The notes under the pieces were generated by a model. It was given only the letters and a program-made list of their open reading frames with translations, was not told where the DNA came from and did not search any database. A DNA stretch of 64,000 nt, taken from Candidatus Bathyarchaeota archaeon. GTDB taxonomy: Archaea; Thermoproteota; Bathyarchaeia; Bathyarchaeales; Bathycorpusculaceae. This document shows, one piece after another, positions 1 through 13,025 of the stretch (the first letter of the stretch is position 1; each line of letters starts with the position of its first letter). Position numbers and translations under genes: made by a program. The stretch spans positions 1 to 64,000 of the forward strand of contig CAWHDT010000009.1 of assembly GCA_963828195.1 (NCBI GenBank). Direction: 5' to 3'.

Positions 1-21
1 CTTTGAGAATCAGACATTTTC

Positions 22-1386
22 TCAGCTTGTTGCGGGCAGCGTTTGTATTTCACTTTTTATCCTTTCGGGATTAAACAGCAGAATGTCATTGGCTTCGTTT
101 AAGTCGAACCCTGATTTTGAAAAGAGCACTTTCTTAACAGTTTTTTTGGTTTTTACAGCTTTAGATGATTCTTCAAGATTGTTTAGGTCCATTAGACCTA
201 GTTTTTTGTTTGTCCATTTGCACTCTGCAAAATACATGCAGCTATCTGTTTCTGTAATGAAATCTATCTCTTTTTCTTCGAACTTATTGGGCGTAACCTC
301 CACTTGCCCCCACCAGCGTCCCGTTCTGATTACTTTTTCACCTTTGACCTTTAAGTATGCTGCAAAAAAGTCTTTGCAAAACGTTTCGAACCTCTTACTG
401 ACAAACTCGTTAATCACCTCTTTATTGGGCTGTTCGGGCTTGCCATAAACGTGGGCGAACCAGAAGGCAATGGTGTTATCTTTGATTGAGTATAGTCCTT
501 TCTTGCTTCGTTGGATGTTTTGCCCAAAGGGCACGTTCCGCTCTACAAGTTGGAAGTCTTGTTGTAGTGAAATTATGTATTTAGAGAGTGTTGTCTGTGA
601 CACGCCAAGTCTATTAGCTATTTCGCTGCCTGTGACGACGCCTGCGCCTATCGCTTCTATTATTGAGAAATATTTTTTATAGGAGACTCCGAATTCTTGT
701 CGGAGTACATTTTGTCCTTCTTCCTTGAGAGGTGCGGCGACGTCAAAAAAGAGGTCATTTATAGGATTCGTAATGCCCATTTTCTCAAGCAATTCGTAAT
801 AGAAAGGCACTCCTCCCAGTATGCAGTAGTTTCTAATCTTTTCCAAGGCATCCACACCCAGATCTTCTTGAATTTCCCAAACAACTCTCAATGTTAATGG
901 TTGAAGTATTAGCTGGTAACTTGCTCTGTTGAAAAGGGGTGCCTTCTGTTGGGTGAATATCTTGTTCATCATGCTAACGTAGGAGCCTGAAAGGATGAGT
1001 TTTTTTGAACTTGTTTCTTTGTATTTCTCCCAAATCCTTTGAAAGACGTATGGTATTGAAGCGTTCACTTCGATAAGATTTGGAAACTCGTCTATGTAGA
1101 GAATCTGTTTCTTTGAGTTGTTGAAATAGTATTCAAGAGCTTGTTCAACGTTATTTAGTGAAGGCGCGTAACCGTCAGCGAGGGCAACTGCAAAATCGGC
1201 TGCTACTTGTTTTTCTTCTTTTGGTACTATGAGAATCTTGACTGCTTCTTTTTCTTTTAGAAATTCATTAATGAGTCTGCTCTTGCCTATTCGCCTGCGC
1301 CCACTCACTACTATCATCTCTGCGCCTTTTCGGGAACAGGCTGCGTCTAATGCCTTAAGTTCAATTTGTCTACTATAGAACTTCAT
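22..1386 (-). CDS. Archaeal ATPase (ATPase_2) + wHTH + DUF234-type PD-(D/E)XK domain
   Basis: Walker A GRRRIGKS, Walker B YIDEFP, LILSGS, C-terminal GRWW...EIDF...AECKW. Confidence 0.85.
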   Translation of the reverse strand: MKFYSRQIELKALDAACSRKGAEMIVVSGRRRIGKSRLINEFLKEKEAVKILIVPKEEKQVAADFAVALADGYAPSLNNVEQALEYYFNNSKKQILYIDEFPNLIEVNASIPYVFQRIWEKYKETSSKKLILSGSYVSMMNKIFTQQKAPLFNRASYQLILQPLTLRVVWEIQEDLGVDALEKIRNYCILGGVPFYYELLEKMGITNPINDLFFDVAAPLKEEGQNVLRQEFGVSYKKYFSIIEAIGAGVVTGSEIANRLGVSQTTLSKYIISLQQDFQLVERNVPFGQNIQRSKKGLYSIKDNTIAFWFAHVYGKPEQPNKEVINEFVSKRFETFCKDFFAAYLKVKGEKVIRTGRWWGQVEVTPNKFEEKEIDFITETDSCMYFAECKWTNKKLGLMDLNNLEESSKAVKTKKTVKKVLFSKSGFDLNEANDILLFNPERIKSEIQTLPATS

Positions 1387-1437
1387 ATTATTCCACTCAG
1401 GATAATCCTACGGCTGGATAATCAACGAATTCGAACC

Positions 1438-1514
1438 GCTGTGCGTGAACCAGCGCAGACTTTAGAGTGCTTGACTATTGGAGAAGCCACCCAACTTGTC
1501 GGTTGGTAGTTCAC
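1438..1514 (+). mobile_element. IS200/IS605-family right-end / TnpB omegaRNA-like relic, no transposase
   Basis: GAAG-hairpin(CCAAC/GTTGG)-TAGTTCAC terminus; upstream hairpin carries GTGAAC (1445-1450) complementary to terminal GTTCAC (1509-1514). Confidence 0.5.
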
Positions 1515-1918
1515 AGTTCCTCAAATATTATTTCTAAGTTCTTTTCACAGAAAGTTATTTTGAAATGAGGAAAAACATCTGTTCTGCCTAGCAGCCGTGG
1601 AACCTCATTAGAAACTGCAAAGGCAGCTTCAACATCCAACTCGGTATCTCCAATCCTAATTTTAATTTTATGAGTGTACGCTGGAATTAATATTCTTCCA
1701 ACACCAACTATCGGGCGGTAATCACCTTGAACTAGATTTAAACCTAAGAGGTCAGCATCGACTCTCCTGAACAAAGACAAATCTGCCCCGCTGTCGATAT
1801 AAACACGAGAGGGCTGCCACGCGCCATTTTTTGAGCACAGAAAAACAGTGGCTTTAGGTCGGTTAATGGTTCCTGATCCAAGAGGTTCAGGCGAGTACTT
1901 GAAAACATACCTTCTCAA
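1511..1918 (-). CDS. Retropepsin-like aspartic protease
   Basis: YIDSGAD catalytic motif and LLGRTD motif, 135 aa. Confidence 0.85.
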   Translation of the reverse strand: MRRYVFKYSPEPLGSGTINRPKATVFLCSKNGAWQPSRVYIDSGADLSLFRRVDADLLGLNLVQGDYRPIVGVGRILIPAYTHKIKIRIGDTELDVEAAFAVSNEVPRLLGRTDVFPHFKITFCEKNLEIIFEEL

Positions 1919-2139
1919 ACTATCAGCACATCAGCAGATTGAATATAGTCAAGTATTATTTCTTCAGTTTTCGCTTCGGGGCATTTCTTTAAAGCTTTCT
2001 TCAATGCCTCACTCGGCGTATTCCCAGATGCCACTATCTTATTCTTGTATATAGCGACGTCCTTCCCTCTGTACTTCTTATACTCTTCCGCTGTTATCTG
2101 TGGTGCGTCAAACACTTTTTCAATTACCTTTTCTGGCAC
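1915..2139 (-). CDS. DUF5678-like small protein, partner of retropepsin
   Basis: KYRGKDVAIYKNKIVASG motif; 4-nt overlap with the protease gene. Confidence 0.75.
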   Translation of the reverse strand: MPEKVIEKVFDAPQITAEEYKKYRGKDVAIYKNKIVASGNTPSEALKKALKKCPEAKTEEIILDYIQSADVLIV

Positions 2140-2446
2140 TCAGAAACACCTATATGATAAGTTAATGCCTGCAGCATCTATTAAGTTTTCCAGAAGTTGC
2201 TTATTGCGGGGTTGTGTTGGCTCTTTTTGTTCTGTTGGTGCTATTTACGTTGTTCCTTCTTCTTTCAATAGATCATGTTTTGATGTGTGTTTTCAAGTGA
2301 ATTTCTGCTAAGGTGCTTTTTGTTGATTCCCTGATTTTAAGAAGCAGCTTTGGGGTGGACATTTGTAGTCAGGGGGCTGTGCTGTAAGAACTGCGGTGTT
2401 GTTACCAGTGCGAAAATAGAGGAATATATCAACAAAAATTAGATGT

Positions 2447-2479
2447 GGATGCTCGCCTCGGAAGAGGCGAGTAGTTCAC
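2447..2479 (+). mobile_element. IS200/IS605 right-end-like hairpin
   Basis: GGAT-GCTCGCCTC-GGAA-GAGGCGAGT-AGTTCAC: 9-bp stem, GNRA loop, same TAGTTCAC end as 1507-1514. Confidence 0.5.
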
Positions 2480-2499
2480 TTTCTGTTCTATTCTATCTT

Positions 2500-2559
2500 C
2501 TACGTTTTTTGCGCGAACCACTTTATTGTTCTCTTGAGTCCTTCTCCAAAACTCACTTT
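2500..2559 (-). pseudogene. Displaced 3' end of a UDP-glucuronate decarboxylase gene (copy 1)
   Basis: Translates KVSFGEGLKRTIKWFAQKT*; the intact gene at 12015 ends KVSFEEGLKRTVAWFKQKT*. Confidence 0.85.
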
Positions 2560-2591
2560 AATTAAAATCCACTAAAAAACGGCAGTTACTA

Positions 2592-3293
2592 TTACTCGCT
2601 AAGCTTTTTCAAAAGATTTTCCATGTTTCTTTGAGCGTTCTCAATTTGTTTTTTCACGTCAACAGTTAATCTAAATACGCCTTTCAACGAGTCAACTAGT
2701 TTAGGATCATTTAGCATTTCCATTATGTTGCAGACCTGCGTTTTTAACAGTTCATTTCTCCCTCTTTTTAGATGAGACAGAATCTCTTCCAAGTCTACGT
2801 TCCCCATTAACATAATTATATCGCGTACGTCAGTTCTTCTTGCCGAATGAATCTTAAATGCAATCATCAATTCCTTCTCCGGAACTCTGCAGTTAGCCAC
2901 TGTTTCTATTCCCGCGATGGCTATTTCCACTGAATATTTCTTTATATAATCAAAACTCCAAGCTGCCTCAGTGGTTCTGCAGACTAGACTTCCAACGAGA
3001 AGGTCAAAAGTTACTGGAAGCTCTCCCACTTTCTTCTCGTAACTAACAAACTCACCAGCATATGTTTCGTCAAACCCTTTTTTCTTAACGTTCCTTTCAA
3101 AACCATATCCTTGCAATAACTCTTCGACCAAAAGCATTTCTTTTTTTGATACAACAACATCGCAATCTACAGAAAATCTGTGAGCACCCAACCCACTGAC
3201 CGCGTAACCCCCAACCACAACAAAATCCACCTTTTCCTCCGCGAGCCTGTTAATGGTCAGTATTATTTCGTTCTCTCTACTCACAAACTCCAT
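2592..3293 (-). CDS. Nucleotidyltransferase (AbiEii-like / DUF6036-like), putative type IV TA toxin
   Basis: VVVGGYAV...RFSVDCDVV, FKIHSARRTDVRD motifs. Confidence 0.7.
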   Translation of the reverse strand: MEFVSRENEIILTINRLAEEKVDFVVVGGYAVSGLGAHRFSVDCDVVVSKKEMLLVEELLQGYGFERNVKKKGFDETYAGEFVSYEKKVGELPVTFDLLVGSLVCRTTEAAWSFDYIKKYSVEIAIAGIETVANCRVPEKELMIAFKIHSARRTDVRDIIMLMGNVDLEEILSHLKRGRNELLKTQVCNIMEMLNDPKLVDSLKGVFRLTVDVKKQIENAQRNMENLLKKLSE

Positions 3294-3302
3294 ACAAACC
3301 CA

Positions 3303-3929
3303 CTACATATTCGTCTTTGTTTCCATGTACTTTACATTTAAACCCAGTTTATACATTTCATCTAACATCTCCAGAGCTGGCTCAAAAGAGTAAACATTCC
3401 TTTGACAAAACTCCACAGCCTCCTTCAGCGGCGTGACGCAAAAGCCATTCACTTCTTCCAATTCAAAATGAACTGCAGGATACAGCACATAGAACACGCC
3501 AAACAACGTCTCTCTCAAAGGCTGATTTTCAATCCGGAACCTTTTTTTTCTAGAATTAAAAAATTTCTTCCACTTACTCAAATTCTGCCTTTCAACTTTA
3601 AAATGGATCGGGTAAAAACCAAAAAATCTGTCAGCTTGATAGCCGCCTTTGGTCCATAAGAACACTGCATCTGGTCCAGTTAAAGCGTAACGCATGTTTG
3701 CTTCTTTTAACAAGTCATATGAACCAGCTATGTTGGTTCTTTTAGCCAGATACTGCTCTGGAGAATTGACTTTGTATTTGCCCCATCCAACTCTCTCTAA
3801 TAATTCTTTTTTGGTCATATCATGTAAGACTTTGTTTGCGTCAGGACTGGCGAAAGTTGAAGAAAACTCTTTTACGGTAAACTCCTTCTTCCAACTTAAT
3901 AACACATTCCACAATTCATCATAAGCCAT
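3303..3929 (-). CDS. AbiEi-like antitoxin / transcriptional regulator
   Basis: N-terminal wHTH-like segment (LERVGWGKY), YALTG motif, upstream of the NTase gene; probable start ATG at 3929. Confidence 0.6.
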   Translation of the reverse strand: MAYDELWNVLLSWKKEFTVKEFSSTFASPDANKVLHDMTKKELLERVGWGKYKVNSPEQYLAKRTNIAGSYDLLKEANMRYALTGPDAVFLWTKGGYQADRFFGFYPIHFKVERQNLSKWKKFFNSRKKRFRIENQPLRETLFGVFYVLYPAVHFELEEVNGFCVTPLKEAVEFCQRNVYSFEPALEMLDEMYKLGLNVKYMETKTNM

Positions 3930-3932
3930 AAA

Positions 3933-3951
3933 TATTACTGTAACAGTAATA
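3933..3951. promoter_or_regulatory. Perfect palindromic operator
   Basis: TATTACTGT-A-ACAGTAATA, 3 nt upstream of the ATG of the AbiEi-like gene. Confidence 0.6.
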
Positions 3952-4023
3952 AAAAATAAATGTTTCGTTTCCAAAATACCTAAAATTTTGCAAAAAACAG
4001 AATAAACTCTAAATGTTAAGCGA

Positions 4024-4153
4024 CTACTCTTTGCGAAACCAAGTTACCGTTCTCTCGAGCCCTCCTCCAAAACTCACGTTAGTTAAAATCCACTAAAAAA
4101 CGGCGGTTACTATTACTCGCTAAGCTTTTTCAAAAGGTTTTCCATTTTTCTTT
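4024..4153 (-). repeat. Diverged duplicate of 2500-2633: NTase 3' end + spacer + decarboxylase 3' end (copy 2)
   Basis: Encodes ..MENLLKKLSE* followed by NVSFGGGLERTVTWFRKE*; shared TTAAAATCCACTAAAAAACGGC.GTTACTATTACTCGCTAAGCTTTTTCAAAAG. Confidence 0.85.
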
Positions 4154-4257
4154 GAAACACCGGTTCATTTGCCTAACGCATTTATGCAGGTTTAAGGGTA
4201 ACTTCCATGACGCTCCATTCAAGGGTTCGCTCATTTTTCTCGGCATAATCTTCATTT

Positions 4258-5628
4258 TTAGCTTTCATGTTTTAGGTCTCGAAGGTCTATAGCCATGAAA
4301 CCTTCGTTTCTTATTTTTTCTTTTTCTTCTATTTTTTTAGCCATTAACCCGAGGGTGATTTCTTTTGCTTCAGGTATTTGTTGCGTCTTCGCTGCCAGGT
4401 CTGACAGCAGCCTTTTCGCGTCAAGATAACTTAAATCAGCCCACTTTACTTCAACTGCTAATGCCCTACGGGTTTTCGTTTCCAATCCTAAAAGGTCTAT
4501 TTCAGTTCCCTTCCACCACCACTTCCCAATACGATCTACCCTTATAGGGAGACGATTAGTCTTGGCCATCTCTACTAATATTTCACTGCAAACTTCCTCA
4601 AAGACATAACCCAGATAGCGATTAAATTCATCCTTAACACTTTCCCACACACTTGCTTCCAACTCTAATTCAATTTGTCTTCGATTAGGTCTTATGAACT
4701 TAAACCAGAAATTAAAGAACTGATCCTTCATGTGGTAGAGCCCCTTTTTGGCTTCCTGTTCGGTTACAGGCCTAATTCTCTCAATCAAATTGAGAATCTC
4801 TAAAGTCTTGAGGTATGTAGTTGTGTTTTCTCGGCTAAGACCAGTAGTGTCTGCAATCTCACTTAACGTGTTTTTGCCAGAAGCTATAGCCGTAAGTATA
4901 TCCATGTAACGTTGCGGAGCCCTTATCTCCTCCATCAGCAACATTTCAGGCTCGTCATACAGGGCAGAACGTTTACTCAAAATTTTTTCAACAATGTTAT
5001 TTTCTACACTTAAATTTTCATCTACATGCTCCAAGTATGCCGGTGTTCCCCCGAAACTCCCATAAATCATCACAAGCTCTTCAGCAGAATACTTCTTAAA
5101 CCAACTAAACAAGTCTAGATACTTTAACGGTTCTACTTTCAGCGTTGCTGTTCTTCTCCCATACAGTGGAGCGTTTCCGCTTAAAGCGACTTTTCTTATT
5201 GCACCTATCGATGAACCTGAGAAAATCAGAAAAGACCTGCTTACTGAAAGTTTCTCGTCCCAATACTTTTGTATTAGCGAAATGGCGCCATCGATGTTAA
5301 TTAACCTCTGGAACTCATCAATTGCCACAACAGTGCCATTTCCCGACTTTTTTACAATATACTCCATGAACGAACTAAAATTTGAAAAATTGAAGCCTTC
5401 AAAAAACTCACTCTCCACAACATGAGAGAACTCGGCTAGAATAGTTTTCTCCTCTGCATTGGGAACATAAAAATAGAGGCTGGGTTTATTCTTAAGAAAT
5501 TCTTGAACGAGCCGAGTTTTACCAACTCTTCTGCGGCCGTAAAGGAGAACGAGCGCCGCTTTCTTTTCGTTACGTAGGCTGTTGAGCGCTTCGAGCTCAG
5601 CTTTTCTGTCAACAAAACTAAGAATCAT
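4258..5628 (-). CDS. Archaeal ATPase + wHTH + DUF234-type PD-(D/E)XK domain
   Basis: GRRRVGKT, AIDEFQ, FSGSS, GKWW...EIDLL...VEVKW. Confidence 0.88.
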   Translation of the reverse strand: MILSFVDRKAELEALNSLRNEKKAALVLLYGRRRVGKTRLVQEFLKNKPSLYFYVPNAEEKTILAEFSHVVESEFFEGFNFSNFSSFMEYIVKKSGNGTVVAIDEFQRLINIDGAISLIQKYWDEKLSVSRSFLIFSGSSIGAIRKVALSGNAPLYGRRTATLKVEPLKYLDLFSWFKKYSAEELVMIYGSFGGTPAYLEHVDENLSVENNIVEKILSKRSALYDEPEMLLMEEIRAPQRYMDILTAIASGKNTLSEIADTTGLSRENTTTYLKTLEILNLIERIRPVTEQEAKKGLYHMKDQFFNFWFKFIRPNRRQIELELEASVWESVKDEFNRYLGYVFEEVCSEILVEMAKTNRLPIRVDRIGKWWWKGTEIDLLGLETKTRRALAVEVKWADLSYLDAKRLLSDLAAKTQQIPEAKEITLGLMAKKIEEKEKIRNEGFMAIDLRDLKHES

Positions 5629-5653
5629 GATTGTAACAATCTAGATTGTAACA
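5629..5653. promoter_or_regulatory. Tandem GATTGTAACAA direct repeat at the gene start (putative operator)
   Basis: Two exact 11-mers with 14-bp periodicity, immediately upstream of the ATG. Confidence 0.5.
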
Positions 5654-5808
5654 AATTAACCTTTTCCCTTTCACTCTGCGGACCTGTTAATCATCAATAT
5701 TATTTCATTCTTTCTATTTGAGGCATAATCAAAACGAGTATTTTTTAATTTTTGTTAATTTTAACCATAGTAAAATTTAAAAGTTGTTAGCAATTCTATT
5801 GATAAATA

Positions 5809-7107
5809 GTGAAGGGCAAAGGCATGATAAGTGAAGCGTATCCAAGAGACATCCTATTAGACCTGAACAAGTGGATAAACCGCAGGGAAGCCTATGCAAT
5901 AAAAGGTCCAAGGCAGTCGGGAAAAACAACCATCCTAAAACAACTACAGAAAAGCTTGTCTGAAAAAAAAGTTATTTTCCTAAATTTTGAAGATCCAGAT
6001 ATATTGGAATCATTTGAAGCCAATCCAAAAGAATACATTAGCAGCTATATGACCAGCAAAGATCCGTACTTTTTTCTTATGGATGAGTATCAATACGTAA
6101 AAAACTGCGGAAAAACTCTCAAGTTCCTCTATGACACCTTCGAAAACGTAAAGTTCATAGTTACTGGAAGCTCATCACTCGAACTTTGTGGAGACATGGC
6201 TAAATTCCTTGTCGGACGGGTTTTCTTCTTCGAAGTGTTTCCTTTCAGTTTTCACGAGTTTTTAACGACCAAGGACTCCCGATTAGCCAATATTTACCAA
6301 GAAAAAAACCGTCAAATCAAACAATTCATGCTTATCGGCTCCTCGCAAAATATTGAAACCGCTGACATTTTCCACAAGGAATTTATTTCACCTCTAAACG
6401 AGTTCTTAACATTCGGGGGATACCCAGCTGTCGTAACAGCTCAGGATGCCGAAACTAAAAGAATTATCCTGAAAAACATCTACGACACTTACGTCTCAAA
6501 AGACGTAATAGAGTTCCTTAGAGTTAGCGACCCATCAAAATATCGTTGTATAGCCCGAACTTTAGCAGCCCTAACAGGGAAAATACTGAACTTCAATGAA
6601 GTCAGCAAAACATGTCAAAGTTACTATAAGGAAACAAAGAAAACCATCTCTACGCTCCAAGAAACCTACATAACCCAACTTATCCAGCCGTTCCATAAAA
6701 ACCCTCTAACCGAACTGAAAAAAAACCCGAAAGTATACTTTTACGATACAGGACTGAGAAACTATATACTTAACAATTTCAATCCGCTGGAGAAAAGAAC
6801 TGACGCAGGTAACCTCGCTGAAAACCATGTTTTCCTTGCCTTACGAAACAGCTTTCCAGACAAAACCATTAACTACTGGCGAACTACAAACAAAGCCGAA
6901 GTTGATTTCATTATCAACTTAGATGACGAAATTGTTCCTGTAGAAGCCAAATACCAGGTGTTCCAGAAACCCAAAATCTCCAGAAGCTTCCGAAGCTTCA
7001 TAGAAACCTACAAACCAAAAAAGGCGTTGATAGCTACAAAAGATTATTGGGCTATCGAAAAAATCGAAAACACAACTGTACTCTTCGCACCTATGTACTA
7101 CTTCTAG
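5809..7107 (+). CDS. AAA_14 ATPase with DUF4143 domain
   Basis: GPRQSGKT, LMDEYQ, VTGSS, GGYP, KVYFYDTG, EVDF..PVEAKY; start may be ATG 5824. Confidence 0.88.
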   Translation: MKGKGMISEAYPRDILLDLNKWINRREAYAIKGPRQSGKTTILKQLQKSLSEKKVIFLNFEDPDILESFEANPKEYISSYMTSKDPYFFLMDEYQYVKNCGKTLKFLYDTFENVKFIVTGSSSLELCGDMAKFLVGRVFFFEVFPFSFHEFLTTKDSRLANIYQEKNRQIKQFMLIGSSQNIETADIFHKEFISPLNEFLTFGGYPAVVTAQDAETKRIILKNIYDTYVSKDVIEFLRVSDPSKYRCIARTLAALTGKILNFNEVSKTCQSYYKETKKTISTLQETYITQLIQPFHKNPLTELKKNPKVYFYDTGLRNYILNNFNPLEKRTDAGNLAENHVFLALRNSFPDKTINYWRTTNKAEVDFIINLDDEIVPVEAKYQVFQKPKISRSFRSFIETYKPKKALIATKDYWAIEKIENTTVLFAPMYYF

Positions 7108-7220
7108 CCTTGCCTTATACACCTAAATCTGCATCCTTTCTTAAGCGTTGCCAACATTTACAACTTCAAAAATAAATTCAGTTTGCTCGGGTTGAGCTTC
7201 ATGAACAGGACCCTGGCATT

Positions 7221-7301
7221 CACTTTTGTTTTTTGCCACCGCATCTCCAGCCTAGTGGTGTCTGGGCAGCGCCTTTAGGGTCGTCCTTGGGCAACGGATG
7301 A
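7221..7301 (-). pseudogene. Displaced near-3' fragment of the UDP-glucuronate decarboxylase gene (copy 3)
   Basis: HPLPKDDPK/RRCPDTTRLE with a 1-nt deletion; DNA aligns to about 12095-12152. Confidence 0.85.
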
Positions 7302-7396
7302 TATTCTATGGTTGACTTGCATTTTGTTGTTTCTTTAACTTTCTTGCTAAGTCAAGTATTGGGCATTTGGTTATTTTGATTATTAACTTGGTTGGT

Positions 7397-7500
7397 TGCA
7401 ATTGCTTTGCTCTATTTTAAGGTGACCTGAAAATTTTGGGTCGGCTAGCACACTGGAGCCTAAATCACCTGTCACTGTGCTAGTGCTCCAGGCGGAAGCC
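7397..7500. repeat. Intergenic repeat family B, copy 1
   Basis: Aligns to 11600-11703 (TGCTCTATTTTAAGGT.ACCT.AAAATTTT...GGCTAGCACACT...CACCTGT.ACTGTGC). Confidence 0.8.
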
Positions 7501-7620
7501 TCAATTTAAGAGGTCCCAGCTGCAGGAGGATTTGGAACGGTTTCTTTCGCTTTCATCATGCTATTCGCTCCGAAAATTCTATATGCCTCTTTACCAGTAA
7601 ACCACTTTAGAGGTTTGGAG

Positions 7621-7947
7621 TTGACTAAAGTAAGCGTCTACGTGGACGATTCGGTATGGTTGAAATTCAAAGCGCAGGTGTTTGAGAAACACGGTAGCCT
7701 TCGGAAAATAAGCAGCGAAGTTGAAGCGCTTCTGCAAGCCACAATCATGGAGGACGAAATCACTTCAGCCTTAAAAAAACCGGCATCACAGTAGATCGGG
7801 GAATTTCTTCGAAGGAAATAAAACAAACAAGAACTACTCTCAAAGGACCTTCTTGAGAGGAAATCGTGAAAGAAATGCGGCGCAGAAGAGTTGCGGAAAC
7901 TTTACCTCGACGCTAGCGTTATGCTAAGGTCTCAACATATTTTTTAA
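7621..7947 (+). pseudogene. Broken vapBC-type pair (RHH antitoxin + PIN toxin stub)
   Basis: TKVSVYVDDSVW RHH start, frameshift near an A7 run, internal stop in GPS*EEIVKEMRRRR; toxin start MRKLYLDASV at 7891 stops after 18 codons. Confidence 0.7.
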
Positions 7948-8026
7948 TTTGTTAAAGCATACCTAAAGTCAGGTACTGACGAGGAAGCTCTCACGGAGTT
8001 TAAGCTGTGAGCAAAGCTGACTGAAC

Positions 8027-8572
8027 TCATCTGTTATCACAGCTCTTTAACACTTTTCCGCTCAAGCCGTCAGAATTGTACTTGAAAGTTTCGTTTTGAC
8101 GTAGCGCCAAACTCCATGTCAAAGCTGAAACCCCAACCATTACAAGCATGAACTCGAGCTGGAGAAGAGAGTTCCATGTTCCAAAGACGCCTGCCCACTG
8201 TGACCACCACCAAACGACACTGTTTACTGGTAAACCTCCCGCCCAAACCGTGAAGTACAATATATCTTGCAGTCCGCCCAGCGCAAGCAGATTGATTGTT
8301 ACCAAGAGCGCAACTGCAACTCTTTTGTCAAAGGATGTTTTGGGTGAAGCCAGCCAGTAGACGAAGGCTGCTGTGGCTGAGAAAACAACGAAGGTGAAGC
8401 TGTAGGTTAGCCAGTACGTGTTGGCCCAGTTGTAGGAGAACACTAAGCCGTAGTTGTATAGGACTGAGTTTACGGTGAAGTCTATTCTTGACATGAACAA
8501 AAAGAACAGAAACACAAAGAACACTAGCGCAAACGCTTTCCAGAATCTCGCATCGGCATTTCTGAAAACCAA
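8027..8572 (-). CDS. Uncharacterised membrane protein (about 4 TM)
   Basis: Hydrophobic segments; likely TTG start at 8572 after a GAAGGGAG RBS-like motif; the ORF-track N-terminal extension looks spurious. Confidence 0.65.
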   Translation of the reverse strand: MVFRNADARFWKAFALVFFVFLFFLFMSRIDFTVNSVLYNYGLVFSYNWANTYWLTYSFTFVVFSATAAFVYWLASPKTSFDKRVAVALLVTINLLALGGLQDILYFTVWAGGLPVNSVVWWWSQWAGVFGTWNSLLQLEFMLVMVGVSALTWSLALRQNETFKYNSDGLSGKVLKSCDNR

Positions 8573-8707
8573 AAATCTCCCTTCAACACCATGCATGAAA
8601 CCAGCGGAGCCCCCAAAAAAGAAGGCTAAAATGAACTCGCTGTGCCAAGTTAAATCAACCCGCTCTGGCTTTAAATAACCTTGTGGTAGAGCCAAATCAG
8701 CAACAAA
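8565..8707 (-). repeat. Repeat family A, copy 1: promoter/leader of the 8027 membrane protein gene
   Basis: Aligns to 10290-10427; contains TATTTAAAG TATA-like box and RBS-like motif on the minus strand. Confidence 0.8.
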
Positions 8708-8855
8708 AAGCGAATCCCTGAGAACAACTGTACCCTTCAGCATCGTTAAGCAATTTGGCTTAACTGAATATGATAAGCTGGATTGGACTCTGAAGGTTGA
8801 AAACGGAGAACTTATTATCCAAGTCGAACCAATAAAGACTGGAAGAACTGAGTGA
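8682..8855 (+). pseudogene. 5'-truncated AbrB/MazE/SpoVT-like gene
   Basis: ATKSESLRTTVPFSIVKQFGLTEYDKLDWTLKVENGELIIQVEP*, no start codon; begins inside repeat A. Confidence 0.7.
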
Positions 8856-8885
8856 CCTCTTTGCATGTCGAGTTAGTAGCAACAG

Positions 8886-9357
8886 ATGGAAAAGCTCAAA
8901 GAAGGATACTTTGGGTAGATTCACTTCAAACGGAGTATATACTGGTCATTGTTCAAAGGGGAGAGGTCAACACACTATATATCACATAGATGGAAACGTT
9001 TTCATTGATTGGATAGGTGAATATGGAAAACCAACAAAAGTTGGAACTTACCAACCGTTAGCCGAGTTTAAAGGTTTTATCAACTAGTTTGCGTTGGTTT
9101 TTCAATATTAACCAATGTACCTTATAAGCTCAAGAAACTTGATGCGATAGTAAACATTGATGCAAGAAACTATCCAAATGGCATAGGTTGTTCTATCTTC
9201 TTAATTGAACCAAATAATTATCAGCTTTTGGGAGAAGTAGCAAAAGGCATACCTTCAGACATGATAACTGAGATCCATTCATTTTTACAATGTAAGCCGT
9301 GGCTTTCCATGATAATTTATGGTAATGTTATGAAAAACTCCGAAGGTGAGGAATAGT
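8886..9357 (+). pseudogene. Degraded hypothetical gene
   Basis: Startless open stretch ending ...IYGNVMKNSEGEE*, preceded by stop-interrupted fragments. Confidence 0.35.
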
Positions 9358-9429
9358 TTTGTGCCTCGAAAGTTTACGTGGGAAGTCAAGCCTTGAGAAC
9401 TTTATCGAACCTAAAAACGAAATCTTAAA

Positions 9430-9798
9430 TTGAATGCTTTTTTAAAACTTGCTGTGGGTGTTAACCTGAAGACATTGCGTGTTAGGGCTTTTGACGGAAC
9501 ATCTGTAACTGTTACGTTAGATGTTGTTAGCCATGTAAGCGGGAAGCATTCGGAGGTTTTATCTTTTTTGGGTTTGGCTGAAGAAGCATTTTTTGATTTG
9601 CTTTGTGAAGTTTTGCAAAAGCCAAATGAGGCGTATGTTGATTCTTCCGGTTCTAAATATTTTTTGAAGCAGGTGAGTGTGCGTGGTATTTTTCTCAACG
9701 TTATTGTTGATGAAGAGGTTGTTCGGACGGCCTACTTAATTAATTCGAAAACCCATTCTAGAATGAGGCGCAGGAAATGGTTACAACGTCTTTGTTAG
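9430..9798 (+). CDS. Putative RelE/DUF4258-like toxin
   Basis: HVSGKHSE...VLQKPNEAY...VRTAY pattern; overlaps a DUF2283-like gene; true start uncertain. Confidence 0.55.
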   Translation: MNAFLKLAVGVNLKTLRVRAFDGTSVTVTLDVVSHVSGKHSEVLSFLGLAEEAFFDLLCEVLQKPNEAYVDSSGSKYFLKQVSVRGIFLNVIVDEEVVRTAYLINSKTHSRMRRRKWLQRLC

Positions 9799-10043
9799 AT
9801 ATTGACGTGGATGAAGTTCTTGGAAAAGTAGAAAGACTTGCGCACGTGAAGTTGCCTAGAGCTGTTATTGAGGTAAGTTTGGAGCCTAAGTTGGAGATGC
9901 TTTGTATTCGCTTCAAGAAGCCTACTAAAGCAGAGTTAGGCGAACCCCTTCATCCCGGCATCCACTTGTTCACCGACATGGACACCAAAGAGATTACAGC
10001 GTTGGAAATAACAGATTTGGCGAAGTTAAAACTTGCTTCATGA
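9777..10043 (+). CDS. DUF2283-like antitoxin
   Basis: LCIRF...GIHLFTDMDTKEITALEI. Confidence 0.6.
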   Translation: MVTTSLLDIDVDEVLGKVERLAHVKLPRAVIEVSLEPKLEMLCIRFKKPTKAELGEPLHPGIHLFTDMDTKEITALEITDLAKLKLAS

Positions 10044-10289
10044 AAAGCGCGCTGGAAAAACGTTTATTTCAGATTAGATGTTGCTAAATAATACCTACCT
10101 AAAGGGGCAAATTTTAAGCGTTAAAGCTTTTCTTTGTTGCCGAACACATTTTACGGTTTTTTTTGACAATTAAATTCACTTTGCAGGTTCTGCTTCAAGA
10201 ACCTTGATTTAATGCTTATTCTGCGATGCATTGTCTAAATTCCCGTGATTTATGAGCGGCGCGCAGGACATAAATGCGGACTTTTTGTA

Positions 10290-10427
10290 AAAACCAAAAA
10301 TCTGCCTTCAACACCATGGCACAAACCCGCAGAGCCCCAAAAAAAGCTAAAATAAACTCGCTGAGCCAAGATAATCACTCTGTTCTGGCTTTAAATACCG
10401 TTGTGGTAGAACCAACTCAGCAATAAA
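10290..10427 (-). repeat. Repeat family A, copy 2, followed by only the first codons (LVF) of the membrane protein gene
   Basis: Aligns to 8565-8707. Confidence 0.8.
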
Positions 10428-10639
10428 CACCAAAGGAACGAACTCTTTCAGAATTCTGAGTTAGGACTTACAGGACTGTTCAGTCCTTCCAATAATCCTG
10501 TTCTCCGAGGCTAGCGTCGATGTGAAGACAAGAGAAATGGTGGTTGATGAGAACATTTCAGGTTTTTGACCGAGCATTTTTCTGTGGTCATGTAAACGTT
10601 TATACGTTTCGTATACGCTTTATTTTAAGGGAGCAGACA

Positions 10640-10948
10640 ATGACAGAAATAGTCTCAACACGAGTTCCTGAAGATATGGCTAAGGATTTGGAGGAAATCG
10701 AAAAAGAAGAAAAGTCGGACCGGGCCACTGTTGTCAGAAAACTCTTAGCGAAAGCAATTGCAGACAGGAAACTCGAAAGGGCATTGACGCTCTTTGGCAG
10801 CGGCAAAGTAACTCTGTTGAAAGCTTCCAAGATAGCTGGTTTGTCTATCTGGGAAATGATGGATATTGTGAAGCAGAGAAAAATTTCTTTCCAGTACTCG
10901 TATGAGGACTTCCGCGGAGACTTCGAAAAAGCTTTGAAGGAACAATGA
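10640..10948 (+). CDS. UPF0175 family antitoxin (RHH + HTH)
   Basis: MTEIVSTRVP...GKVTLLKASKIAGLSIWE; TATACG-TTT-CGTATA palindrome upstream (about 10600-10614). Confidence 0.8.
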   Translation: MTEIVSTRVPEDMAKDLEEIEKEEKSDRATVVRKLLAKAIADRKLERALTLFGSGKVTLLKASKIAGLSIWEMMDIVKQRKISFQYSYEDFRGDFEKALKEQ

Positions 10949-11481
10949 TGCCAAAACCGCTGATTTTCGATTCAACCCCTTTAATTTACCTCACAAAATC
11001 TTCCATGGCAGAAATGCTAAGAGAAATTTCCCAACCAAAATTTACCACGGCAAGCGTGTTTGAAGAAGTGGTTTGCGAAGGCAAAAAGAGGAAAGCGCCT
11101 GAAGCATTGCTTTTAGAGACTTTATTTAACGGGGAAATAATCAAGGTTCGAAGCGTCAGCGACAGGAAATACCTCAATTATGTGGCTGAGATGGCTGCGG
11201 GAAGTGAATTGCAGCCGTTGCATGAGGCGGAAGCTGAGGTTCTTTGTTTAACTAGAGAATTGGATGGAGTAGCTATTGCTGATGATGAAGTTGCTAGGTC
11301 GGTTGCAAGGATTCTGGGTATTGAACTTCACGGAACCGGGTATGTTTTGGGCAAAATCTATGCAACTGGAAAAATCAACAAAGGGGCTCTGATTGAGAAA
11401 GTTAAAGAAATGCGCGGCAGCGGCTGGTATGTGTCGGCTGAAGATTATTTGAAAATAATCGACTACCTCAAAAATCTTTAA
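10945..11481 (+). CDS. PIN-domain toxin, DUF3368 family (VapC-like)
   Basis: IFDSTPLI, LHEAEAE, IADDEVAR, HGTGYVL; ATGA overlap with the antitoxin. Confidence 0.85.
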   Translation: MMPKPLIFDSTPLIYLTKSSMAEMLREISQPKFTTASVFEEVVCEGKKRKAPEALLLETLFNGEIIKVRSVSDRKYLNYVAEMAAGSELQPLHEAEAEVLCLTRELDGVAIADDEVARSVARILGIELHGTGYVLGKIYATGKINKGALIEKVKEMRGSGWYVSAEDYLKIIDYLKNL

Positions 11482-11599
11482 GATTAAGCTATACTGATTC
11501 TTTCGAGAACCCACTCCATTTCTTCTCACTCCGCTTTCAAAAAATCCAAATCGTTCACCGACACTAAAAAATAAATCTCTAACAGAATCGTAAACCGTC

Positions 11600-11703
11600 T
11601 GCAATGGCACTGCTCTATTTTAAGGTCACCTCAAAATTTTAGGTCTGGCTAGCACACTAACGGCTAAAACACCTGTACTGTGCACATGCGCCGCGAAAAC
11701 CCA
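11600..11703. repeat. Intergenic repeat family B, copy 2
   Basis: Aligns to 7397-7500. Confidence 0.8.
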
Positions 11704-11798
11704 GTTCTCGAAAATCAAGCCAGTCTCTGCCAAAAAGATACAAGTTAAAAAGTAACGAACCAAATTAATATCTTAAACGAACATGGAGACGTGTAGAA

Positions 11799-12002
11799 AT
11801 GACTTCTTCAGATATTCCCACGGTTGAAGTGCCGCTTGAAGCCTTAGTTAAAGAGCTTGGCGCTAAAAGGGCGATAGAATTCATTAACGAAATCCGAGAA
11901 TCCTACGGCGAGTCAGTTGCCGCTCTTAAAACGCCGACAGAAAAACTCACAATCGAACAAATAGAAGCCAAAATCAAAGCTTTAAAGAAGAAAAAGATCT
12001 AA
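11799..12002 (+). CDS. Small hypothetical protein, orphan antitoxin-like
   Basis: 67 aa, ALVKELGAKRAIEFI motif, GGAG RBS-like motif upstream. Confidence 0.55.
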   Translation: MTSSDIPTVEVPLEALVKELGAKRAIEFINEIRESYGESVAALKTPTEKLTIEQIEAKIKALKKKKI

Positions 12003-12014
12003 TCCTCAAGATTT

Positions 12015-13025
12015 TCAGGTTTTTTGTTTAAACCAAGCTACTGTTCTCTTCAGTCCCTCTTCAAAGCTGACCTTCGGCTTCCACTCTGCCAGTTTTTCCA
12101 GTTTGGCTGTGTCTGGGCAGCGCCTTTTCGGGTCGTCCTTCGGCAGCGGATGAAACTCGATTGGCGAGGTGCACTGTGTGACTTCTTTGATTTTGTTTGC
12201 CAAGTGCAGGATGGTTACTTCACGGGTGTTTCCTACGTTTACGGCTTCTCCCCGAGCATTTTCGCTGGCGCATAGCAGAAGTAAAGCCGCTGCGGTGTCG
12301 GTTATGTAGCAAAATGACCTGGTCTGTTTTCCTTCGCCGTAAACCGTGATGGGCTGGTTAGTTAATGCTTGCAAGATAAAGCGGGACATGGCCCTGCCGT
12401 ACAGGCCGTCTTCTCGTAGACGTGGACCATACGTGTTAAAGATCCTGGGAACCCGCACATCCAACCCGTACTGCCTGCTGTAAGCCATCAGCAAGGCTTC
12501 AGCGAAGCGTTTTCCCTCGTCATAGCATGATCTGATGCCTATGGGGTTGACTTTTCCCCAGTAACTTTCAGGTGTAGGAATGACTTCTGCGTCTCCGTAG
12601 ACCTCTGAGGTTGAAGCAAACAACAAGGTTGCGTCGTTTTTTCGAGCTATCTCTGCCATGTTTTCGGTTCCAACTGCGCTGGTCTGCAGGGTTTCAATCG
12701 GGTGCGCTTGATACTCGTCTGGAGAAGCGTGACCCGCCATGTGAAAGATAACGTCGAATTTTTCTCTACTTTTAAACGTGCAGACATCAGATCTAAGCAG
12801 TTTGAACTTGGGGTTTCGTGTCAGCTGGTCAATGTTCTTGATTCTGCCTGTTGAGAAATCGTCCAGAGCCGTGACTTGAGCGCCGAAGTCGAGGAGAACA
12901 TCGCAGAGCCAACTTCCGATAAAACCTGCTCCTCCGGTCACCAGCGCCTTCTTTTCCGTATAGGATTCTGCCTTAACGTTGCCTTTTATGGTTTCTATGT
13001 CTTCGCGTATTATTTTGTCTATCAT
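12015..13025 (-). CDS. uxs: UDP-glucuronate decarboxylase (UDP-xylose synthase), extended SDR
   Basis: TGGAGFIGS, ASTSEVYGD, YWGKVNPIGIRSCYDEGKR, RIFNTYGP, DDPKRRCPD. Confidence 0.9.
   Translation of the reverse strand: MIDKIIREDIETIKGNVKAESYTEKKALVTGGAGFIGSWLCDVLLDFGAQVTALDDFSTGRIKNIDQLTRNPKFKLLRSDVCTFKSREKFDVIFHMAGHASPDEYQAHPIETLQTSAVGTENMAEIARKNDATLLFASTSEVYGDAEVIPTPESYWGKVNPIGIRSCYDEGKRFAEALLMAYSRQYGLDVRVPRIFNTYGPRLREDGLYGRAMSRFILQALTNQPITVYGEGKQTRSFCYITDTAAALLLLCASENARGEAVNVGNTREVTILHLANKIKEVTQCTSPIEFHPLPKDDPKRRCPDTAKLEKLAEWKPKVSFEEGLKRTVAWFKQKT

Follow-up and report, generated by a model that had tools for sequence, protein, structure and literature searches.

The uxs gene and its displaced 3' ends

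Here, we describe the region downstream of uxs, a gene for a UDP-glucuronate decarboxylase-like protein, in an uncultured soil archaeon of the Bathyarchaeia. The stretch analysed (64,000 nucleotides (nt), hereafter the window) lies at the start of a 182-kb contig (CAWHDT010000009.1) in an assembly of 9 contigs and 2.83 Mb (GCA_963828195.1). Behind the intact gene lies a row of small accessory genes that is punctuated by three displaced copies of the uxs 3' end, which we call tails. Our analysis supports the view that small accessory-gene cassettes have accumulated in tandem at the 3' end of uxs, that positions 1-12014 are as much of this array as the contig covers, and that the intact copy, judged from its sequence context, would be the target gene regenerated at the array head. 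Base 1 of the window is base 1 of the contig, so the distal end of the island is cut off. The contig start could not be joined to another contig, as neither an overlap nor a common repeat was found at the contig ends.

The intact uxs gene (12015-13025, minus strand, 336 amino acids (aa)) stands at the head of the array. Its product matches the Pfam family Epimerase/GDP_Man_Dehyd (E 1e-51), and among PDB entries the chains of human UDP-glucuronate decarboxylase 1 are the best matches (E 1e-86, residues 24-334), with the next class at 1e-39; no NCBIfam equivalog was matched above its cut-off. A GalU-like gene and a UDP-glucose 6-dehydrogenase gene adjoin uxs. From these matches, we class Uxs as a UDP-glucuronate decarboxylase-like extended short-chain dehydrogenase/reductase. 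The GC content of the island is mostly 0.35-0.43, compared with 0.45-0.51 in uxs and the core genes. Within uxs itself, the first 600 nt are 79-80% identical to the nearest relatives, but the same relatives reach only 64-65% over the last 81 nt, a weak hint that the end of the resident gene may have been replaced.

A preliminary description of the window had pointed to three fragments of the uxs 3' end on the strand of the gene, two of them including the stop codon. Translation, tblastn and a DNA profile built from the last 300 nt of 13 resident uxs genes (searched with nhmmer) agree on all three fragments (Table 1), and tails 2 and 3 indeed carry the stop. When the 336-aa Uxs is searched against the whole 2.83-Mb assembly with tblastn, the three tails are the top short uxs-like matches, next to a few weaker ones at chance level on the contig and full-length paralogues elsewhere. 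Tail 1 is real and extends further than first noted, across a frameshift. Two additional decayed tails at 11505-11600 and 10540-10590, at which an alignment had hinted, were rejected, with no profile match at E<10.

Between tail 3 and the end of the resident gene, 17 of 60 nt are different, with 8 synonymous and 4 non-synonymous codon differences (the change of the stop from TGA to TAG counted as synonymous). The excess of synonymous over non-synonymous differences suggests that tail 3 diverged when it still belonged to a working gene. Tail 1 shares 85% identity with the resident uxs of two relatives (G004 and G003), but only 77% with the intact gene of its own genome. Tails 2 and 3 are mutually closest (89% over 127 nt), and the repeat common to them, D1, includes the last ~11 codons of an AbiEii-like gene. 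By this likeness, the two seem to stem from a duplication in place or from two cassettes of related origin, and not from two unrelated donors. The earlier idea that the tails are alleles from different donors does not hold for tails 2 and 3.

Parts of the island are also present in four public sequencing runs from four studies, as low-depth contigs of 200-750 nt that match at 100% across several junctions; island parts not covered by such contigs are uninformative. A contig of run X1 matches 11812-12066 at 100% and bridges orf67 to the uxs stop, and a contig of run X3 (6986-7306) bridges tail 1 to the ATPase gene. Joints of 2550 to 7296 and 7309 in X1, which connect tail-3-like with tail-1-like sequence, were considered as evidence of excision and rejected, their sides being 35 and 25 letters long with 90% likeness. 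They could be uxs-like sequence of another strain, perhaps an uninterrupted tail.

Arrays downstream of uxs in related genomes

Is the array of the window a common feature of uxs loci? In a first draw of 41 genomes, Uxs was found at E<=1e-60 in 12, all belonging to the genus of the window (11 of 24 congeners and 0 of 16 genomes from other genera). We then surveyed 72 uxs loci in 65 genomes, the window genome (G000) included, over a downstream distance of up to 16-18 kb; several of these loci are shortened by contig ends. The tail profile detected same-strand displaced tails at 11 of the 72 loci, each in a different genome (G000, G003, G019, G023, G004, G131, G095, G076, G046, G098 and G092). 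These 11 arrays hold 31 partial fragments and one extra full-length 3' end in G095, and two further loci have an inverted fragment only. In the largest array, that of G004, nine tails bound nine blocks of 1-2 genes. Toxin-antitoxin (TA) pairs dominate the cargo, which varies between loci.

The duplication is strongly confined to the end of the gene. Across the 72 loci, 28 of 35 non-resident high-scoring segment pairs (HSPs) lie wholly at aa >=237, and the 5 that lie wholly at aa <=236 are pieces of frameshifted resident genes, parts of larger fragments (aa 194+) at L029, or GxGxxG-type similarity. In further genomes, a genus-wide search with an 89-aa tail also found short-frame fragments that cluster on other contigs. 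On a quick uxs tree of 60 rows, which is a gene tree of a recombining gene and from which 12 loci with stops or HSPs <300 aa (3 of them arrays) were dropped, the array loci are scattered, with 7 changes for 8 array rows and clustering no greater than that of shuffled labels.

Comparison of individual cassettes bears on how the arrays are put together. The UPF0175/DUF3368 block of the window is 78-84% identical over ~895 nt to sequences of six species (G004 with two copies, G019, G131, G047, G115 and G048), and in these relatives it sits directly downstream of uxs or between uxs tails. The homology begins and breaks off at the same two points, give or take a few bases, and the block is thus a discrete cassette. 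In G131, G047, G019 and G004 it is followed by a tail that begins at profile position 129-137, and the two copies in G004 differ in their distal junctions, which fall at aa 258 and aa 280. A VapBC cassette of G003, G019 and G004 is bordered on its distal side by the same uxs pseudogene, in which aa ~81-104 are fused to aa 260 onward, and the 3' part of this pseudogene together with its flank matches the downstream sequence of each genome itself. On its proximal side, the tail has an identical end in three contexts but different starts, at profile positions 230, 137 and, in the resident gene, 1. These junctions show that the tails are chimeric, the 5' part going with the upstream cassette and the 3' part with the downstream sequence, which is what insertion by recombination inside the tail predicts. 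Copies of the VapBC-linked pseudogene, with aa ~105-259 missing, are located at L014:4532-4782, L014:15226-15024, L016:3069-2804 and L022:7685-7394; the second copy in G003 is inverted.

The same cassettes are found at different array positions in different species. In G003 and G046, two cassette blocks are 96.6% and 95.5% identical, compared with 83.8% for the uxs bodies, and the block of high identity begins ~40 nt before the uxs stop. A VapBC cassette of 1017 nt is present in one of these two genomes and absent in the other, with both breakpoints inside tails. Among three species, the VapBC genes are 94-97.5% identical and the uxs bodies 74.5-89%. A flank of 114 nt follows the intact uxs directly in G079, G095 and G088 (partial in G088, 74 nt), lies behind the last displaced tail in G076 and G019, and occurs in three diverged copies in the G004 array. 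Its place behind either the intact gene or the last tail is predicted if the native end is pushed outward by successive insertions. On the strength of these sequence comparisons, we consider it highly probable that the loci are tandem arrays, that recombination takes place inside the tails and that cassettes move between species. The proposal in the preliminary description that the uxs 3' end is a recurrent landing pad for tandem accretion is thereby supported by the recurrence of tails, by their chimeric make-up and by the cassette polymorphism of G003 and G046. Relatives do carry tails, and their cargo, which had been singled out for comparison, proved to be variable, with shared cassettes at different positions.

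Two of the arrays hold segments of a different kind. In G003, a block of 5.7 kb between two uxs tails carries a gene for a terminase large subunit (L014:6380-7597) together with a GNAT gene and a ParE-like pair and is a virus-derived piece in an array that TA pairs otherwise dominate. In G046, an insert of ~195 nt without a gene (L033:1166-1362) separates the intact uxs from the first tail; this is an empty cassette or else what remains of a deleted one.

Cargo and other features of the island

The features of the island are listed in Table 1. The earlier labels for its cargo hold for the PIN-type toxin, the ATPase part of the ATPase-nucleases and the protease pair, which are confirmed by Pfam or PADLOC. 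The label AbiE is matched at sub-threshold level only (AbiEii: Pfam E 0.0035, 17.8 bits against a cut-off of 22.5, and PADLOC 0.0027; AbiEi: 0.0067), with no NCBIfam match to the pair, and the label DUF2283 is not confirmed, with no match at E<=5. The PADLOC matches PDC-S01, PDC-S27 and PDC-S70 mark candidate defence systems. No transfer RNA (tRNA) was found in the window or at the junctions, and Rfam gave only two sub-threshold snoRNA-like matches, which lie elsewhere.

Table 1. Displaced uxs tails, accessory genes and repeats between uxs and the contig start, in order of distance from uxs
Feature	Position	Strand	Remarks
orf67, small open reading frame (ORF)	11799..12002	plus	convergent with uxs, first item past the uxs stop; no Pfam or NCBIfam family
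Repeat D5/6, two copies	11600..11683 and 7397..7480	plus	~85 nt; mutual identity 85% over 85 nt
UPF0175 antitoxin-like and DUF3368 PIN-like pair	10591..11485	plus	Pfam; PADLOC PDC-S70, E 2e-15 and 6e-8 (10544-11481)
Repeat D3/4 fragment	10284..10427	minus	copy of the 5' region of membrane ORF 8027-8866; tblastn fragment match
Two overlapping small ORFs, TA-like layout	9430..10043	plus	first weakly PBECR2 nuclease-like, E 0.0021, below cut-off
Membrane-protein-like ORF	8027..8866	minus	no Pfam or NCBIfam family; true start probably downstream of 8866
Small antitoxin-like gene and first ~130 nt of a PIN gene (truncated)	7558..7925	plus	TA cassette remnant
uxs tail 1	7241-7361	minus	aa 271-311; 1-nt deletion near 7280; 3' end missing or decayed; translation ...IEYHPLPKDDPK(frameshift)RRCPDTTRLE; nhmmer 7361-7241, profile positions 104-226, E 1.9e-24; tblastn E 4e-7
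AAA_14 + DUF4143 ATPase	5809..7107	plus	Pfam E 1e-34; PADLOC candidate PDC-S01, E 7e-87
ATPase_2 + DUF234 archaeal ATPase with winged helix-turn-helix domain	4258..5628	minus	PADLOC candidate PDC-S27, E 1e-47
AbiEii-like 3'-end remnant and spacer	4083..4155	minus	remnant ends ...MENLLKKLSE, then stop; part of repeat D1
uxs tail 2	4024-4082	minus	aa ~318-335 and stop; translation NVSFGGGLERTVTWFRKE, then stop; nhmmer 4082-4028, profile positions 242-296, E 1.3e-6; tblastn E 4.7
AbiEi-like/AbiEii-like (nucleotidyltransferase) pair	2592..3974	minus	sub-threshold matches only
uxs tail 3	2500-2559	minus	aa 318-336 and stop; translation KVSFGEGLKRTIKWFAQKT, then stop; with 2560-2634 the second copy of repeat D1; nhmmer 2557-2503, profile positions 246-300, E 3.6e-7; tblastn E 0.010
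DUF5678 + aspartyl-protease-like pair	1511..2139	minus	Pfam
Second ATPase_2 + DUF234 ATPase	22..1386	minus	PDC-S27, E 2e-42; last gene before the contig start

Several of these modules have counterparts at other uxs loci. The AbiE-like pair is 77% identical over 1392 nt to a pair in G053 that lies ~7 kb downstream of uxs, with no tails flanking it there. The antitoxin/PIN remnant is 86% identical over 358 nt to an antitoxin/PIN pair adjoining the last uxs tail of G076 (L031:4353-4710) and 69% to an antitoxin of G023, and the DUF5678 and aspartyl-protease domains are fused in one ORF of the G095 array (L029:12105-12824).

Repeats other than the uxs tails were also found. D3/4 is a direct repeat of 149 nt with 82% identity between 8559-8707, in the 5' region of the membrane ORF, and the orphan copy at 10284-10427; uxs is thus not the sole gene that sheds fragments in this island. 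The sequence beside it at 8693-8760 also matches C6:20422 and C1:298668. The D5/6 family (~85-95 nt) comprises 11 aligned copies in the genome with 74-88% identity, those outside the window being located at C9:98460, C3:56395, C3:395042, C3:171310, C1:357132, C5:367669, C5:155259, C8:48805 and C8:155868. Its members, which have no Rfam match, combine a perfect palindrome (ACCTAAAATTTTAGGT) with a TATA-like stretch and a hairpin, GCACA...TGTGC, that is conserved, and both copies in the window lie 80-120 nt upstream of small plus-strand genes. From these features, D5/6 could be a promoter/operator module, a small RNA or a miniature inverted-repeat transposable element. A further short sequence, ~135 nt just downstream of tail 3 (2347-2481), recurs in contigs of runs X1 and X3, where it differs by 3 substitutions and 1 inserted base, has other flanks and is covered at higher depth. 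This recurrence suggests that the sequence is repeated or mobile in the community. It holds a perfect hairpin with an 8-bp stem (2452-2471) and has no second copy in G000.

Copied gene ends are seen elsewhere in the same genome as well. Just right of the window, on the same contig, the last ~48 codons of a 342-aa gene without a Pfam family are copied 3.8 kb downstream on the same strand at 98% identity (C9:64677-64820 and C9:68636-69664; L026:4677-4820 and 8636-9664), and bPH-domain, holin-like and GT2 genes lie between the two. On another contig, two adjacent genes recur as fragments (83% and 92% identity) on the same strand, ~25 kb downstream of where they are intact (C5:536724-537837 and C5:562489-563880), and this may be another inserted segment flanked by gene-end repeats.

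Probable insertion of cassettes at the uxs 3' end

What inserts the cassettes? No integrase had been in view in the window, and this proved to be the case in all arrays examined. Pfam revealed no integrase or transposase family among 131 array ORFs (18 in the window, plus 70 and 43). Tyrosine recombinases (PF00589) are encoded in all 11 genomes searched, with 5 matches in G000 and 2-19 in each of ten relatives, but in none of them on an array or within 40 kb of one, and the matches in G000 lie on other contigs. Homologues of the five G000 recombinases were not detected in 1.08 Mb of uxs loci, and a tyrosine-recombinase profile of the genus, built from 23 catalytic domains, found in the same 1.08 Mb a single 101-aa fragment. 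This integrase-like match, 17 kb downstream of uxs in G014, was considered and rejected, as no uxs tail lies within ~30 kb of it. The serine recombinase family PF00239 is absent from G000, G019 and G023 and distant from the arrays in G003 and G004. An attC-like fold was not apparent in seven tails with their flanks (z-scores of -2.0 to +0.6 relative to shuffled sequences, no shared hairpin or inverted repeat), a test that is weaker than the standard covariance-model test of IntegronFinder. In a viral collection, no uxs tail was found that could serve as attP, just uxs homologues of 28-46% identity, and a search with a degenerate tail motif gave no exact match.

Homologous recombination by the host, acting through the tail repeats, seems to us more likely than a recombinase supplied in trans, and we would put its probability at roughly one half. 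Incoming DNA would bring its own copy of the uxs tail, and recombination within the last ~50-270 nt of uxs would join this tail to the resident gene, leaving uxs intact. Each insertion would then shift the previous tail and everything behind it one step downstream, and repeated rounds would lead to the order uxs - cargo - tail - cargo - tail. A donor cassette between two tails could enter a recipient with a single tail either as linear DNA by two crossovers or as a looped-out circle by one. An integrase encoded by the element would not be needed, and TA cargo would resist loss, which may explain why TA pairs dominate the arrays. Because some of the duplicated homology runs past the stop into the 114-nt flank, recombination over long homology fits better than a short core site. 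Somewhat less confidently, we speculate that the uxs tail acts as a portable homology handle, the gene or genes between two tails being a cassette that host homologous recombination would move among those genomes of the genus that have uxs, independently of any integrase, transposase or attC site.

Several observations weigh against homologous recombination through the tails. Four crossovers that were mapped roughly, and the points at which eight minimal tails begin (profile positions 223-251), all fall within the ~40 nt that encode WKPNVSFEEGL; such clustering is expected of a site-specific core, and the same stretch is also the best-conserved one, where homologous recombination would start. 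Minimal tails offer just 50-75 nt of ~80% identity, which is little for homologous recombination, and the tyrosine recombinases present in every genome searched could act in trans. The cassette difference between G003 and G046 can be either a gain or a loss, and cassettes may be highly similar in part because they evolve slowly, not because they were transferred. In the window, the 4.65 kb beside uxs (orf67, the UPF0175/DUF3368 cassette, the TA-like pair, the membrane ORF and the antitoxin/PIN remnant, together with the D3/4 and D5/6 repeats) contain no uxs tail between modules that the profile could detect, so that tail-mediated insertion is not the whole story here. Neither circles nor excised forms were seen, in public contigs that are too short to show these, long-range order or cassette polymorphism.

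A site-specific recombinase, encoded elsewhere in the genome or by a helper element, could instead recognise a core in the last ~50 nt of uxs and insert, excise and shuffle cassettes that lack an integrase, which would parallel the integron cassettes of CALINs (clusters of attC sites lacking integron-integrases) or satellites that borrow the integrase of a helper. Crossovers and minimal-tail starts that cluster at profile positions ~223-262 fit such an enzyme, and so do tiny (0.25-3 kb), discrete cassettes with fixed distal junctions, as for UPF0175/DUF3368 in four genomes, and the PF00589 matches elsewhere in G000. We nevertheless consider it less likely, given that these genes keep away from arrays and uxs loci alike, that G000 is devoid of a serine recombinase and that the uxs tail was found on no contig of the viral collection. 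One and the same cassette has two distal junctions in G004, the duplicated homology at times reaches 114 nt beyond the stop codon, and no conserved hairpin or inverted repeat was found. Both routes named in the preliminary description, a recombinase encoded elsewhere and homology-anchored uptake of foreign DNA, remain live.

The arrays might also be a graveyard of integrase-bearing elements such as proviruses or plasmids, which would have integrated serially at the uxs 3' end and been deleted down to their TA or defence modules and attR tails. The dominance of TA pairs, the terminase large subunit between two tails in G003 and the many truncated or decayed tails agree with this, and at tRNA genes, rows of decaying elements that include partial copies of the target have been described (bioRxiv 10.1101/2020.12.28.424599; PMC4383910). 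An intact integrase-bearing element was, however, seen at none of the 72 loci, in surveyed stretches that are blind to elements >~16 kb, and identical minimal cassettes with their tail junctions (94-97%) recur at different positions across species. Minimal units would thus still move or be shuffled after any decay, and we regard the graveyard as quite improbable. That nothing here is mobile, with the pattern arising from chance similarity, assembly chimeras, or local duplication and decay of a second uxs copy, is far less probable still. It is true that tails 2 and 3, which have an AbiEii remnant in common, look locally duplicated and are individually weak in the whole-genome tblastn search, but profile E-values range from 1e-6 to 1e-24, the fragments are strictly same-strand with a strong 3' bias, and 10 other independently assembled genomes, one of them a single contig, show the pattern. 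With the 100% matches of short public contigs from four studies across several junctions and the synonymous excess in tail 3, this last explanation is largely refuted.

How do the uxs arrays compare with known systems? Surface-glycan loci and minimal mobile elements are swapped by homologous recombination between conserved flanking genes, one cassette replacing another. Likewise, uxs lies where conserved nucleotide-sugar genes give way to a variable glycan/accessory region, with conserved flanks as anchors; unlike in such swapping, the uxs locus leaves a growing row of duplicated tails of one gene. In Rhs and CdiA polymorphic toxins, displaced 3' fragments lie behind a full-length gene, to which they are homologous over a stretch, and carry variable, functional toxin tips with immunity genes. 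For these orphan C-terminal arrays, exchange by homologous recombination has been proposed, according to the account we draw on (PMC3482391). In contrast to them, the uxs tails are conserved and without function, and the cargo genes have no relation to uxs.

Tandem islands at gene 3' ends (the Islander signature) combine, in the outline given by their source, an intact target with a displaced fragment, and successive insertions push older ones outward (PMC4383910). As far as that outline goes, the uxs arrays are alike in that the target is regenerated and displaced, direct-orientation 3' fragments mark block boundaries. Of the features used by Islander and TIGER, the target and displaced fragments are present and an integrase inside the island is not; the arrays further differ in their archaeal nucleotide-sugar gene as target, in the absence of an integrase from all 11, in units of 1-2 genes (0.25-3 kb) and in an order that differs between species. 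Tycheposons of Prochlorococcus, in the published summary, stack at one target separated by partial copies, with remnants scattered deeper in the island and adaptive or defence cargo (bioRxiv 10.1101/2020.12.28.424599). Whereas these are described there with a tyrosine recombinase and a replication module of their own and a tRNA target, the uxs arrays have neither recombinase nor replication gene, and the window has no tRNA. Integrons and CALINs, which also occur in Archaea, form rows of small cassettes with frequent TA cargo, and arrays without an integrase are thought, in the part of the literature consulted, to be movable in trans (PMC9668308). The small cassettes of mostly one gene and the TA cargo of the uxs arrays resemble them to that extent. 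Unlike in integrons, the uxs repeat is a coding 3' end and not a folded attC, IntI and attI are absent, and the cargo lies in both orientations with its own promoters. A keyword search of the open-access literature, which is not proof of absence, found no account of uxs tails in displaced positions, nor of any array in Bathyarchaeia that lacks an integrase and sits at a protein-coding gene.

In summary, we found a defined, recurrent hotspot at which small TA and defence-type modules enter, stack and, very probably, move between species without a mobility gene of their own. Bathyarchaeia are abundant and uncultured, and gene exchange among them is almost unstudied. Extra copies of the uxs tail provide a practical marker for such arrays in metagenomes, and the question of a fixed crossover core versus dispersed crossovers is answerable with existing data. 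If the uxs tail is indeed a portable handle, it would be a recombinase-free counterpart of the integron on the 3' end of a housekeeping gene, with TA cargo locking in the gains. If host homologous recombination acts at this site, accessory genes would spread through the clade by carrying a short end of a conserved gene, a route that pipelines seeking integrases, transposases or attC would miss.

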